This document shows, one piece after another, positions 13,010 through 26,136 of a stretch of 59,861 nucleotides of DNA. Source of the DNA: Candidatus Giovannonibacteria bacterium (GTDB lineage: Bacteria > Patescibacteriota > Minisyncoccia > UBA11713 > 2-01-FULL-45-33). Where the stretch lies: positions 1 through 59,861 of the forward strand of contig JAUYMO010000023.1 of assembly GCA_030699445.1 (NCBI GenBank), read 5' to 3'. A model generated the notes under the pieces. That model saw only the letters and a list, made by a program, of their open reading frames with translations. It ran no database searches and was not told the origin of the DNA. Position numbers and translations under genes: made by a program. Position 1 is the stretch's first letter. Each line of letters starts with the position of its first letter.

Positions 13010-13040
13010 AATATCCTCATTGTACCACTAAACCCAAAAT

Positions 13041-13062
13041 GTCAGAAGTTCAAGTTTTGACA
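13041..13062 (+). repeat. hairpin GTCAGAAGTTCAAGTTTTGACA, copy A (31 nt upstream of the RAYT-like gene)
   Basis: 7-bp stem GTCAGAA / TTTTGAC. Identical to 13261-13282. It contains TTGACA. Confidence 0.7.
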
Positions 13063-13092
13063 AAATATGGCGTTATAAGCTATTTTTAAAAC

Positions 13093-13764
13093 ATGCCTAG
13101 AGTTAAATTTGGTGAGGGCGAATATTATCATATTTTTAATAGAGGCGTAGACAAGCGCCAAATTTTTTCAAACGACGCTGATAGATGGCGTTTTCTTACG
13201 CTGTTATGTGTTTTGCAGGGAGAAAATTCTTTTCCGCAAATCGGCCGCATAGTGCCTTTTGTCAGAAGTTCAAGTTTTGACAATGAGATGTTCGACGGGA
13301 CTATAAAGACAAAATATGTGGAATTGGTAAGTTTTTGCCTAATGCCAAACCATTTTCATTTGAAAATACGTGAACTTAAAGAAGGTGGCGTCTCTAAATT
13401 TATGCAGCGTTTGCTGGGCGCTTATACCAAATACTTTAATATGCGCCATGGCCGCACAGGGCATTTATTCGGCAGCAGATTCCACGCGGTTCATATAGAC
13501 AGCAATAAATATTTAAATTATCTTTCTGCTTACATTCACTTAAATCCCCGCGAATTAAAAGAGTGGCGCGGCAAAGAAATAAAATATCCATGGTCCAGTT
13601 TTCAGGATTTTACTTTTAAGAATCGTTGGAACGCTTTTTTAAATACCTCAATTATTCTAGATCAGTTTGCCACAAGATCAGAATACAAAAAATTCGTAGA
13701 AGATACCCCCATTAAGGAGTTGCGCGAAAATTTACCGGAAGAATATCAGAAGTTCGAGTTTTGA
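13093..13764 (+). CDS. IS200/RAYT-like HUH Y1 transposase family protein (paralog 1)
   Basis: YHIFNRG, an HUH motif (PNHFHL), and YLSAYIHLNP (catalytic Tyr region), as in COG1943/RayT-type proteins. Confidence 0.75.
   Translation: MPRVKFGEGEYYHIFNRGVDKRQIFSNDADRWRFLTLLCVLQGENSFPQIGRIVPFVRSSSFDNEMFDGTIKTKYVELVSFCLMPNHFHLKIRELKEGGVSKFMQRLLGAYTKYFNMRHGRTGHLFGSRFHAVHIDSNKYLNYLSAYIHLNPRELKEWRGKEIKYPWSSFQDFTFKNRWNAFLNTSIILDQFATRSEYKKFVEDTPIKELRENLPEEYQKFEF
13261..13282 (+). repeat. same hairpin, copy B (inside the ORF, near codon 57)
   Basis: Exact 22-mer repeat of 13041-13062. It is translated as FVRSSSFD. Confidence 0.7.
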
Positions 13765-13766
13765 CA
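13746..13766 (+). repeat. same hairpin, copy C (overlaps the stop codon)
   Basis: TCAGAAGTTCGAGTTTTGACA, with 1 mismatch. It covers the TGA at 13762-13764. Confidence 0.65.
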
Positions 13767-13930
13767 GATTTGTGGAAACCGCCATTTGTGCTTGCACATT
13801 ACCCCGCTAACTTGACACGTATTTTTAATTATGCTACATTAATAGCGGGTTCAGAATGAGTCAAAAACCGAATCGGGAGAAAAATTTAAAAGCATTTCTT
13901 CCGTGTTCTTTTAAAAGAAAGGTGGGAGCA

Positions 13931-14185
13931 ATGATTCAATATGGACAAGCGCACACCAGTAAGGATAGGAGGACAAAAAAGACCTATGCCTCACATTCTG
14001 ATTGGTTAGTGAGGGTTCTGGATGAAAGAGAGTTTTCACACCATACTAGCGGGTACAAAATAGCCACAGTAGAAGGAAAAGTGGCTGTCATTTACCTAGA
14101 CGGCCAAGTGGTGCGTCTCTTCCTAGACGAATTTCGTAATAAGAAAGAGTTCCGCGCCCACATCCGCCTAATATTAAGTGCATGA
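13931..14185 (+). CDS. hypothetical protein (84 aa from the ATG at 13931; the ORF is open from 13856)
   Basis: A ggtggga SD sits 5 nt before 13931. A TTGACA-17-TACATT promoter starts at 13812. No family recognised. Confidence 0.4.
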   Translation: MIQYGQAHTSKDRRTKKTYASHSDWLVRVLDEREFSHHTSGYKIATVEGKVAVIYLDGQVVRLFLDEFRNKKEFRAHIRLILSA

Positions 14186-24224: not shown

Positions 24225-24298
24225 GGGGACAGGAACGGTAGAAAAAATAAAATAGTGTCAGTAAAAATAATAGCCCAAATTTGGGCGGAGGAGAATTT

Positions 24299-24439
24299 AT
24301 GGATGGACTATTGGTGGTAGGATTTCTTGGCCTCGGTTCTGTACTAATTGGCATGGCAACGAACGGTCTCATCGGCGCCGGAGTTTTCTTCATAGGGCTT
24401 GCCGTATGTTTGACCATCGAACTAAACTCACCGAAGTAA
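24299..24439 (+). CDS. 46-aa small membrane protein, orphan
   Basis: ggaggag SD. MDGLLVVGFLGLGSVLIGMATNGLIGAGVFFIGLAVCLTIELNSPK. Below the ORF-track cutoff. Confidence 0.35.
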   Translation: MDGLLVVGFLGLGSVLIGMATNGLIGAGVFFIGLAVCLTIELNSPK

Positions 24440-24490
24440 ACTAGAGCATTTCTCACTCCCACACCTCAAAGGCCTAAAAACGGGCCGAGA

Positions 24491-24520
24491 CCCACCGTCC
24501 GCACGGTGGGTTTTCGTTTT
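24491..24520 (+). terminator. rho-independent terminator
   Basis: CCCACCGT-CCGC-ACGGTGGG followed by a T-rich run. Confidence 0.65.
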
Positions 24521-24543
24521 TTTACGCAACGCCGAAATGACTT

Positions 24544-24560
24544 GACGAGATGCGACCTCG
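24544..24560 (+). repeat. hairpin GACGAGATGCGACCTCG, copy A' (32 nt upstream of RAYT-like paralog 2)
   Basis: Identical 17-mer at 24748-24764. An inverted, 1-mismatch copy lies at 25271-25289. Confidence 0.7.
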
Positions 24561-24591
24561 ACATGGCTAGGAAACAGCGTATTATGGACAT

Positions 24592-25263
24592 ATGAGATTT
24601 GCTAAAGGCGAGTTTTATCACATTTACAATCGCGGGGTTGAAGGAAGAAATATTTTTATGGAAAGAGCGGATTATTTGCGATTCCTTCGCGGCTTAAAAG
24701 AATTTAACATTAATGGCAATACGAGGTTAGATCGCACAGCCGCTGCTGACGAGATGCGACCTCGTTCTCGTCAGAAACACACAGCATTAACATCAATTCT
24801 TGCCTATGTTTTGATGAAAAATCATATACATTTGTTGTTATATTGTATAAACGAAGAAAAGATGTCGCTTTTTCTGCAAAAAATTTTTGTTGGGCACACA
24901 ATGTACTTTAATACAAAATATCAAAGAACAGGCGTTCTCTTTCAGGGTAGATCAAAGTCTAAACATATTGACGACGATCACTATTTAAAACATCTAATTG
25001 ATTATATCCATTTAAATCCCTTAGATTATTCAATGCCCCAATGGCGAGAACACGGCATTAAAAATAGTTTGAGCACCAAAAACGAAATATTAAATTATCC
25101 ATGGTCAAGCGCAAAAAGCATAATAAATAACAAACCTAATCCGATTTTAAATGGAGAATTGGTCCGAGAGCTATTTCCTCATCCAAAAGAACTTTTAACG
25201 TCAGCGCTAGAATGGTCTTCAGAAAAATTTGAAGACGCAGCCGGCCTTTTAATTGAGCCTTAA
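24592..25263 (+). CDS. IS200/RAYT-like HUH Y1 transposase family protein (paralog 2)
   Basis: YHIYNRG, an HUH motif (KNHIHL) and HLIDYIHLNP. Same 223-aa length as paralog 1 but strongly diverged. Confidence 0.75.
   Translation: MRFAKGEFYHIYNRGVEGRNIFMERADYLRFLRGLKEFNINGNTRLDRTAAADEMRPRSRQKHTALTSILAYVLMKNHIHLLLYCINEEKMSLFLQKIFVGHTMYFNTKYQRTGVLFQGRSKSKHIDDDHYLKHLIDYIHLNPLDYSMPQWREHGIKNSLSTKNEILNYPWSSAKSIINNKPNPILNGELVRELFPHPKELLTSALEWSSEKFEDAAGLLIEP
24748..24765 (+). repeat. same hairpin, copy B' (inside the ORF, near codon 53)
   Basis: Translated as DEMRPRS. It also forms GACGAGA...TCTCGTC. Confidence 0.7.
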
Positions 25264-26136
25264 CTAACGTGACGAGGTCGCACCTCGTCGGCGGGCATGA
25301 AAAGCTTTATGGACTTCTTTTAATTGTTTGTCGGTAAAATGTGTGTAGATTTGCGTGGTGGAAATGTTGGAGTGGCCGAGCATAATCTGGACCGAACGGA
25401 GGTCGGCTCCGTTTTGCAATAAATCTGTGGCAAAAGCGTGGCGCAGGACATGCGGGGTGACTTTTTTGGCGATGCCCGCCTTAATCGCGTATTTTTTTAT
25501 CATTCGCTGGATTGAGCGCGGTGTCATCGGAAATAATTTATCGTTATCCACACTGCCGCGCTTTTCTAAATATTTTTTGATGGCCTCTTTGGCGCGGTCG
25601 GACAAAAAGACAACCCTAATCTTCCCGCCCTTTCCGCGGACGGAAAATTCGTCGCGTTTTAAATTAACATTATCAATTTTTAAATTGCAAAGCTCCGAAA
25701 TACGGAGTCCGGTTGAAAAAAAGAGTTCCAAAATCGCTTTGTCTCTTAAAATTTTCGCGGACTCGCCCTTGGGAGAGTCCAGCAATCTTTCCAAGTCGGC
25801 AATATCCAAAAGGTCTAATTCTCGCTGGGGAAGCTTGGCGAGCTCAATTTTTTCGGCATCCAGCGAATCAATATCTCTTTTCGCAAGATATTTCAAAAAC
25901 ATCCGGAGCGCGATGACATAATAATTCTGCGTATTTTTGTCCAAGTTCGCGCGGTTAAGATAAAGCCGGTATTTTCTTACTAACTCTTCGGTAATCTGGC
26001 CAGCAGAATCAATTTTTGAAAATTCAAAAAACCTTTTTAAATACCTGTCATAATTTTCTACAGTCTTCACGGCTCTCCCTTTTTCAATCTCTAGATATTC
26101 AAGAAACTCCTTCTTTAATTTTGCGACACTTTCCAT
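25264..26136 (-). CDS. tyrosine recombinase XerC/XerD family
   Basis: [31 protein letters not shown] and [14 protein letters not shown]. Confidence 0.88.
25271..25289 (-). repeat. same hairpin, copy C' (inverted, perfect 8-bp stem)
   Basis: GACGAGGT-CGC-ACCTCGTC, 8 nt after the RAYT-like stop. It encodes the last residues (RRGATSS) of the convergent xer gene. Confidence 0.7.

Follow-up and report, generated by a model that had tools for sequence, protein, structure and literature searches.

Why should a gene carry three copies of its own palindrome, one in front of the start codon, one inside the reading frame and one at the stop? The question is raised by a 59.9-kb contig stretch from a Candidatus Giovannonibacteria bacterium (assembly GCA_030699445.1, contig JAUYMO010000023.1; the whole stretch of 59,861 nucleotides is called the window below). 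Here a gene for a predicted HUH/Y1 endonuclease (gene 1) and a diverged paralog (gene 2) show much the same arrangement, each with a different palindrome. A preliminary description of the window, made from its letters, had proposed that protein and hairpin form a co-varying functional unit, and this proposal is supported by the three-site layout found in dozens of diverged homologs. The layout is real and biologically meaningful, and the gene and its palindromes probably constitute a relative of the REPtron, the gene for a REP-associated enzyme flanked by its own repetitive extragenic palindromes (REPs).

Gene 1 and its palindrome

Gene 1 and the copies of its palindrome occupy the following positions.

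13093..13764, plus strand: gene 1, for an HUH/Y1 endonuclease of 223 residues in which NHFH occupies residues 86-89 and YIHLNP contains Tyr147
13040..13063, plus strand: upstream copy of the gene-1 palindrome, TGTCAGAAGTTCAAGTTTTGACAA, whose 3' arm is the TTGACA of the predicted -35 box
13260..13283, plus strand: internal copy (at "site A"), a 100% match to the upstream one, encoding VRSSSFD
13744..13767, plus strand: third copy (88% identity in 24 nt), which includes the stop codon at 13762-13764 and is read in a frame that differs from that of the internal copy

Copies were searched for in the window with up to 3 mismatches, and shuffled sequence served as the control. The gene-1 22-mer, GTCAGAAGTTCAAGTTTTGACA, is found without mismatches at 13041-13062 and 13261-13282, within a 24-nt exact block common to the upstream and internal copies (13040-13063 and 13260-13283). 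The third match, at 13745-13766, has 2 mismatches over these 22 nt and 1 over the 21 nt considered in the preliminary description, so that the triplication claimed there (upstream, within the open reading frame (ORF) near codon 57, and over the stop) is confirmed, with two of the copies exact. The gene-1 palindrome is without further copies in the window at this threshold; the chance expectation is 0, and none was found in 100 shuffles.

The internal copy supplies codons 57-63 of gene 1, which form the end of a predicted helix (residues 50-58) and the next loop, before the HUH strand. The stop-side copy covers the TGA and reads QKFEF*. Because VRSSSFD and QKFEF* arise from different frames, the gene-1 repeat resides in the nucleic acid and not in the peptide. 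Its palindromic nature is clear mainly through relatives, where the element appears as a near-perfect palindrome of 21-25 nt.

Gene 2 and its palindrome

The second gene and its palindrome copies are located as follows.

24592..25263, plus strand: gene 2, encoding a 223-residue paralog with NHIH and YIHLNP motifs
24543..24563, plus strand: upstream copy of the gene-2 palindrome, whose 3' arm overlaps the predicted -35 box TCGACA
24746..24774, plus strand: internal copy, in frame near codon 53, encoding ADEMRPRSRQ; the repeat itself is 24747-24764
25270..25290, no strand assigned: downstream copy, inverted relative to the other two and starting 8 nt past the stop

The proteins encoded by genes 1 and 2 are 35% identical (E 8e-34). 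The gene-2 repeat, TGACGAGATGCGACCTCG, is exact at 24543-24560 and 24747-24764, with a chance expectation of 0.02 in the window search. The third copy (25270-25290) has its best match on the opposite strand, with 2 mismatches, and is therefore an inverted copy. With that addition, the claim that the paralog has the same three-site layout with a different hairpin is upheld. Folded as single-stranded DNA, the upstream, internal and downstream copies give -3.6, -9.1 and -8.7 kcal/mol, respectively. The internal copy sits in a larger hairpin, CTGACGAG...CTCGTCAG (z -3.3 for the -9.1 kcal/mol), and the downstream copy is a perfect hairpin, GACGAGGT-CGC-ACCTCGTC. At up to 3 mismatches the gene-2 palindrome has no further copies in the window, and it is absent from all of the fetched homolog loci described below; an exact-sequence look-up of gene 2 gave no record.

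Layout across the family

To see the arrangement in its family, 80 homolog loci were fetched from species-representative genomes, and 86 genes were analysed, including both window genes; 230 equal-length segments out of the same loci served as the control. At least two copies of one palindrome are present in 70 of the 86 family units, versus 5 of the 230 control segments. Most of the family genes have a gene-specific, near-perfect palindrome of 17-29 nt that recurs within the unit. It is found upstream in 73/86 genes and at or just past the stop in 58/86, and in-gene copies occupy two positions, site A (44/86 genes) and site B (12/86); some genes have all four sites. The internal hits cluster at gene-1 residues 53-71 and 160-164, with 2 exceptions, both beside the C-terminus. 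Site A is bounded by helix A and the strand before HUH; site B, just past the catalytic tyrosine motif, separates YIHLNP from YPWSS.

Site A is an inverted doublet within the Y1 ORF at three loci, L048 (+154), L049 (+178) and L079 (+158 and +176); these are perfect palindromes of 44-46 nt, REPIN-like but coding. Deletion variants running from hairpin to hairpin were sought among the short homologs P0063, P0107 and P0118, and none of the three has a boundary at a palindrome: P0063 and P0118 are N-terminally short, starting at about residue 36-38, and P0107 is without the C-terminal ~30 residues.

Co-variation of protein and palindrome

The sequence of the palindrome changes from gene to gene, and its copies within one gene change together. 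Over 21 nt, internal copies are 94% identical to the external copies of their own gene, versus 40% to those of a random other gene, and in 47.5/53 cases the match within the gene is better than the best match to any of 85 others. Hairpin identity correlates with protein identity (r = 0.48). Stem positions are 93% Watson-Crick, to the same extent inside and outside the ORF, and between clades the palindrome is wholly different in sequence (for example GTCAAACATCGGATGTTTGAC, ACTTGGGAGCTCAACTCCCAAGT and TGTTCGGAGTCGGACTCCGAACA). Both orientations are found, with asymmetric loops exactly reverse-complemented, and inverted doublets occur at gene flanks and even within ORFs. The loop comes in the variants AAC, AAG and GAG, and which of the three sites has which variant differs between orthologs of 87-91% identity; this suggests exchange between sites.

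The preliminary description had named, as an objection to its own proposal, an internal copy that corresponds to a conserved peptide regardless of palindromy; on this point the outcome is mixed. In the clade nearest to gene 1, the internal copy does encode a peptide that is semi-conserved, V(K/E)HxxF(D/N). The codons behind it are GTC AAA CAT ... ATG TTT GAC, and peptide and palindrome are therefore one and the same. In other clades the internal copy changes in step with the flanking copies. The idea that the internal and terminal similarity is a repeated protein motif, with palindromy incidental, could draw on this nearest clade and on genes with the same peptide at sites A and B, such as KLGSSTPKS twice in L039. 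It is effectively refuted by the non-coding upstream and post-stop copies and by the different frames of the gene-1 internal and stop copies; moreover, 93% Watson-Crick pairing is kept while the sequence changes completely between clades, and the number of copies expected by chance is ~0.

The protein family and its fold

The two genes are members of a large clade from Patescibacteria that encodes single-stranded DNA (ssDNA) endonucleases of the HUH/Y1 type, class 2, related to RAYT / TnpA-REP, the REP-associated tyrosine transposases. A database search gave 3,660 relatives at E <= 1e-5, and those with names are from Giovannonibacteria, Niyogibacteria, Nomurabacteria and other Patescibacteria; such genes are currently annotated "transposase" or "hypothetical". 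Gene 1 scores 43.4 bits with Pfam Y1_Tnp (PF01797), over the cut-off of 23, and gene 2 scores 20.5 bits, slightly under it, with clear homology to gene 1 as given above. In 114 aligned family sequences, N86, H87, H89, Y147, H149 and N151 are invariant. The Y motif of both genes, YIHLNP, is of the class-2 Y...NP type, and the typical family protein has about 220 residues and a helical tail with YPWSS.

A PDB sequence search gave only weak matches to ISDra2, and a fold search was needed to place the protein. The AlphaFold2 model is confident (pLDDT 93, pTM 0.90), and its best PDB match in Foldseek is 4ER8, E. coli TnpA-REP with a REP hairpin (E 1e-5), followed by the TnpA proteins of ISDra2 and IS608; 4ER8, 2XO6, 2A6M and 2VJV each have a probability of 1.00. 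Pfam and profile searches of both proteins detected no helix-turn-helix or other DNA-binding domain.

The promoter

When 86 upstream regions are aligned on the ATG, TAtaaT is fixed at -12..-7 and G at -14, and no Shine-Dalgarno signal is seen. The upstream palindrome usually occupies about -38..-14, which is the -35 box plus the spacer, as in L060 (TTGGAA-17-TATAAT) and L002 (TTGAAC-17-TATAAT). The predicted promoters of the two window genes are as follows.

13057..13086, plus strand: predicted gene-1 promoter, TTGACA, 18 nt, TATTTT, with 6 nt between the -10 box and the ATG
24558..24585, plus strand: predicted gene-2 promoter, TCGACA, 16 nt, TATTAT, again with 6 nt between the -10 box and the ATG

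The earlier suggestion that TTGACA of the gene-1 upstream copy doubles as a -35 box therefore fits, and the -10 box that accompanies it is fixed family-wide. A -10 box ending 6 nt 5' of the ATG implies a leaderless mRNA, and a leaderless transcript would place the upstream copy outside the mRNA, in an operator-like position. From this position, autoregulation through the upstream copy may reasonably be inferred. At the other end of the window genes, a terminator scan gave no terminator-like site at the stop-side copies.

Dispersed copies of the palindrome

Cognate palindromes are also found away from the Y1 genes. The 1.15 Mb of DNA flanking the family genes contains 35 extra cognate copies, about half of them within long ORFs. 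In the LigA ORF that starts at 1274 of L039, the palindrome encodes ELGSSTPKR inside an insertion of 9-13 residues relative to solved LigA structures, and in the GatB ORF that starts at 14470 of L047 there are three copies, one of them a doublet giving a loop insertion of 8-15 residues relative to solved homologs. The proteins of essential genes with in-frame copies are longer by ~8-18 residues, placed in loops or linkers, such as the stretch just ahead of the adenylation motif in LigA and the one ahead of the zinc finger in SecA. Annotation does not recognise these palindrome inserts of about 8 codons in housekeeping proteins (secA, ligA and gatB) as repeats.

A metagenome scan with the gene-1 palindrome revealed six orthologous Y1 loci with the three-copy layout. 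In related Giovannonibacteria contigs the palindrome is present at about 6 or more distinct loci. One is the C-terminal linker of secA, before the zinc finger, where it is in frame (NVRSSTFDK; secA 3'-end copies are found in L103/L118/L129/L141). Others are a ~190-residue ORF (in frame), an opposite-strand ORF, a site 4 nt 5' of a tRNA gene, and intergenic DNA. Judging by a shared dataset prefix, at least two of the dispersed gene-1 copies apparently share an assembly with the 89% identical ortholog of gene 1, on other contigs. The dispersal is REP-like behaviour at low copy number. The dispersed REP-like hairpins envisaged in the preliminary description thus exist for gene 1 in related contigs, and the window has none beyond those of the units themselves.

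Locally, copies are densest in L036, where five lie no more than 3 kb to either side of the Y1 gene; one is in frame in an ORF of 358 residues starting at 1275 that resembles, by eye, a reverse transcriptase (of the group II intron or retron type). A perfect palindrome that shares the core of the gene-1 palindrome, GGGTGTCAAAAGTTCGACTTTTGACACCC, recurs with identical flanks in L123, L128, L139, L146, L150, L153-L155 and L158-L160. The contigs come from at least 10 separate records, of which two carry the label human-gut metagenome, and the context is conserved and apparently unrelated, with no Y1 gene nearby. A variant of the gene-1 stop copy, ATCAGAAGTTCGAGTTTTGACA, is found within a conserved ORF of ~854 residues in L108, L110, L112, L114, L143 and L161, contigs of a higher-GC organism (GC ~0.55); this may be a coincidence or an unrelated conserved coding sequence. 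Both sets (the contigs with the 854-residue ORF, and the perfect palindrome in human-gut and other contigs) were set aside as metagenome matches from unrelated organisms.

Mobility and genomic context

The 89% identical ortholog of gene 1 is syntenic, in the order gpmI / Y1 / rny / ymdB. Two other family proteins, identical on 15 contigs and on at least 24 contigs, are each found in a single context. The Y1 gene itself does not look recently mobile, and the occurrence of identical proteins always in one context is REP/RAYT-like and not that of an IS200-type transposon. Neither gpmI nor rny lies beside the Y1 gene in any of 80 distant loci (0/80); on a long time scale the genes relocate or turn over. 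The preliminary description had left two options for the unit; a REP/RAYT pair fits the dispersed palindromes, whereas minimal IS200 ends do not fit the single context of each identical protein.

Several neighbouring ORFs deserve mention. Between gene 1 and rny lies an ORF of 109 residues (13856-14185, plus strand) with a promoter-like site at 13812-13840 (TTGACA-17-TACATT). It is missing at the orthologous locus L082, where rny is ~130 nt after the Y1 gene. On the other side of the window's second unit, an ORF of 290 residues (25264-26136, minus strand) is convergent with gene 2 and ends 1 nt after the gene-2 stop; its C-terminal part resembles, by eye, a tyrosine recombinase of the XerC/XerD type. 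Its last ~8 codons (...RRRGATSSR*) are encoded by the gene-2 downstream palindrome (25270-25290), and the palindrome thus extends the neighbouring protein. Directly 5' of the gene-2 palindrome and promoter are a small hydrophobic ORF of 52 residues (24281-24439, plus strand) and then a strong terminator-like hairpin with a T-run (24487-24514).

How the layout might be explained

Taken together, the two genes are probably examples of a REPtron-like unit of a Patescibacteria-specific Y1 clade, in which the cognate palindrome is placed in the promoter, within the ORF, at the 3' end and sparsely in the genome, and is bound and cut as an ssDNA hairpin. Each gene has its own cognate palindrome of 21-25 bp, which behaves in the manner of a low-copy REP element. 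As in a REPtron, the gene is flanked by copies: the upstream one provides the predicted -35 box and spacer, and the second is at the stop or shortly past it. Sites A and B take one or two more, in frame, and a few are scattered elsewhere, often in the loops or linkers of housekeeping proteins. The protein would bind the palindrome folded as an ssDNA hairpin and would cut and rejoin DNA beside it, as E. coli TnpA-REP does in vitro. Coupled with conversion of short patches between neighbouring copies, such activity could account for spread in both orientations and for doublets; it could also hold the copies within a gene uniform as those of different genes drift apart. Since the upstream copy lies in the promoter, binding of the protein there would probably also limit transcription of its own gene.

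The in-gene copies might even be a selected device rather than passengers that the gene tolerates, an idea to which only a small chance is given. A palindrome in two positions that bracket the catalytic core, and in the promoter as well, would tie together gene, substrate and expression control. It seems similarly doubtful, as an extension of this idea, that changes in the palindrome are copied among the sites, through hairpin exchange or conversion catalysed by the enzyme, and so change the encoded protein segments, that the internal coding constraint channels the evolution of the palindrome family, and that the whole forms a self-referential unit of co-evolution with autoregulation.

Several observations weigh against a REPtron-like unit. 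The gene-1 element is a poor ssDNA hairpin: its three copies fold at -3.3, -4.0 and -0.3 kcal/mol (z -1.1, -1.5 and +0.4), no better than shuffles. The gene-2 copies fold better; with hairpins as weak as those of gene 1, the solid feature of gene 1 is the repeat. Copy density is low, at about 1 per 33 kb with 0 extra copies in the window. The NCBIfam equivalog for RAYTs, REP_Tyr_transpos, scores only 38.0 and 37.5 bits for the two proteins against a cut-off of 80, and the GT[AG]G foot of canonical REPs is found within 6 nt of either foot in only 5/212 copies. The palindromes are nearly perfect, with a centre of 1-5 nt, and their G-T and A-C mismatches (48 vs 33), compared to tell hairpin from duplex recognition, have no clear strand bias, so that a dimer on double-stranded DNA would suit them equally well. 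The regions of the two in-gene sites are equal in length with and without a detectable internal copy, arguing that the in-gene copies are old embedded features and not recent insertions. Simple insertion of 8 codons is ruled out as their origin, the region length being unchanged by the presence of a copy. The anatomy, its conservation across the family, the co-variation, the dispersal, the overlap with the promoter and the fold are shown by the sequences and the model, whereas binding, cleavage, homogenisation by the enzyme and autoregulation are suggested by homology and anatomy.

The near-perfect symmetry raises the possibility that the palindromes are duplex sites for a protein dimer, with the promoter copy as the primary operator, the in-gene and terminal copies as auxiliary operators in autorepression by DNA looping, and the dispersed copies incidental. 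Auxiliary operators within genes are known from lac O2 in lacZ and gal OI in galE. Such an operator model would make sense of the upstream copy covering the -35 box and spacer, of palindromes with a tiny centre and no strand asymmetry, of copies ~200-220 bp and ~480-520 bp apart in one unit, and of a helical C-terminal region of ~60 residues without an assigned function. The HUH/Y1 fold, however, is known to bind folded ssDNA hairpins (the 4ER8, IS608 and ISDra2 complexes), and no helix-turn-helix or other DNA-binding domain was detected in the searches described above. The spacing of copies is unphased (195-246 bp), cognate copies lie in secA, ligA and gatB and beside a tRNA gene, away from any Y1 promoter, and the spread, the inverted copies and the doublets are left unexplained. 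The model is thus unlikely as the full account, but it is a live and partly compatible rival that can coexist with a REPtron-like unit as a secondary role.

Two other explanations are much less probable. In one, the upstream and stop hairpins are the ends of a minimal IS200-type insertion sequence, an autonomous ssDNA transposon of ~730 bp, with the internal copy as an accessory end or an abortive one. This would fit a compact unit bounded by like hairpins, a Y1-family enzyme, and a context that is not conserved in distant homologs (the 0/80 loci with gpmI or rny beside the Y1 gene). The single context of the proteins that are identical on 15 and on at least 24 contigs, and the synteny of the 89% ortholog, make it very improbable, as do same-genome paralogs that are ~35% identical with different palindromes and a Y...NP motif where Y...Q would be expected. 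Furthermore, the same palindrome is found at both ends in either orientation, whereas IS200 has distinct left and right imperfect hairpins, and solitary palindromes are dispersed without a gene. In the other explanation, which has an equally slight chance of being correct, the palindromes act in mRNA, stabilising its 5' end, marking an internal processing site and terminating or stabilising the 3' end, and the protein might bind them. The downstream copy is indeed often just past the stop and is sometimes followed by T-runs, and REPs of other bacteria have been reported, in the accounts that treat them, to be active in 3' untranslated regions. However, given a -10 box fixed at 6 nt from the ATG, the upstream copy falls outside the transcript, and copies occur in both orientations with no overall sense-strand excess of G-U-compatible mismatches (the 48 vs 33 above). 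The window copies have no terminator-like site, and an Rfam scan of the window matched tRNAs only.

If the genes are REPtron-like, REP/RAYT-type systems would extend to the Patescibacteria (Candidate Phyla Radiation), with more than 3,600 family members. The genomes concerned are very small and have little intergenic space, and palindromes are found in frame also in the essential genes secA, ligA and gatB. The clade would offer compact natural test cases (~730 bp, 3-4 sites and many co-varying pairs) for the function of a domesticated Y1 enzyme and for the spread and uniformity of REPs.

Comparison with known systems

The REPtron, a tnpA-REP gene flanked by its REPs, is established (PMC6006769), and RAYTs have been described as domesticated and single-copy (Bertels et al. 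2017, PMC5581495), a pattern that the contexts of the Y1 genes here match, unlike that of IS200. Processing of single-stranded REPs in vitro, perfect-palindrome REPs included, is described by Corneloup et al. 2021 (PMC8266576). The preliminary description had regarded a cognate hairpin inside the gene as an undescribed feature, and this was wrong. In-frame REP insertions inside tnpA-REP genes of subclass 2.4 are described by Quentin et al. 2018 (PMC6006769). Di Nocera et al. 2013 (PMC3733652) described intragenic REPs, many of them in replication and repair genes, as well as flanking repeats that overlap the ends of tyrosine-transposase genes. A cognate palindrome in the gene is therefore not unprecedented. 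In the collection of papers that was searched, none ties Patescibacteria or Parcubacteria to RAYT, REPIN or TnpA-REP.

The units described here resemble the REPtron (E. coli TnpA-REP, 4ER8; as portrayed in PMC6006769 and PMC5581495) in the HUH/Y1 fold, the class-2 Y...NP motif and a flanking palindrome family of their own. They also share with it a palindrome that is private to each paralog, with co-evolution of protein and palindrome, a low gene copy number, vertical inheritance and a context that is stable over short evolutionary distances, and solitary palindromes elsewhere in both orientations and as doublets. They differ in the score with the RAYT model (38 bits vs 80), in the lack of a GT[AG]G foot and in palindromes that are nearly perfect. 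Copy density is very low, about 1 per 33 kb, with many copies intragenic; canonical REPs usually exceed 100 copies per genome, and the copies here were counted in 1.15 Mb of flanks and in related contigs. The upstream copy that forms the gene's own promoter, the conserved in-frame copies and the longer protein (~220 residues), with its YPWSS-containing helical tail, are further differences.

Among the other class-2 enzymes, TnpA-Y1 subclass 2.4 (as outlined in PMC6006769) has, like the genes here, cognate palindromes within its own undisrupted ORF besides the flanking copies. The copies here differ in their placement: site A precedes HUH and site B follows the Y motif, so that both fixed positions fall outside the HUH-Y interval, and the length is that of genes in which no copy is detected. 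The motifs are NHFH, LFG/LFQ and YIHLNP, versus NH[IFV]H, WQ and YIxNNP in the subclass 2.4 of that account, and the hosts are Patescibacteria, versus mainly Cyanobacteria and Bacteroidetes there. By inspection of motifs, the likeness to subclass 2.1 / TIRYT lies in NH[YF]H, FQ and Y[IV]HLNP, an "SS" in the proximal tail and a length of ~220-240 residues, to go by the outline of that subclass. Some of the TIRYT flanking repeats overlap gene ends, as they do here (Di Nocera et al. 2013, PMC3733652). Unlike subclass 2.1, the proteins here have no C-terminal helix-turn-helix (DnaA_C-like) that Pfam could find. Subclass 2.1 was reported to be without REP-like sequences, at least in the part of PMC6006769 that deals with it, whereas here such sequences are plain to see. 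Terminal inverted repeats like those of TIRYTs, GGGG[AT][CG]A[CG], were not noticed among the flanking repeats.

The dispersed copies recall intragenic REPs and the Rickettsia palindromic elements (PMC3733652), which are likewise short in-frame palindromes that add loop peptides to unrelated, often DNA-metabolism or housekeeping, genes. Unlike those elements, the repeat family here is tied to an adjacent Y1 gene that carries copies at conserved sites, the repeats are only ~21-25 nt long (~8 codons), and the hosts are Patescibacteria. With IS200/IS605 elements (IS608 and ISDra2) the units share a Y1 HUH enzyme, subterminal hairpins on both sides of the gene and a related fold. They are set apart by the absence of any sign that the unit moves, by Y...NP in place of Y...Q (the subclass 1.1 signature, as given in PMC6006769), by identical palindromes on both sides in either orientation and by solitary dispersed palindromes. 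The differences from known systems are the phylum, the fixed in-gene positions, the promoter-embedded upstream copy with its implied leaderless transcript, the foot-less palindromes and the low-copy, largely intragenic dispersal; the genes are probably an undescribed variant of the REP/RAYT kind of system.

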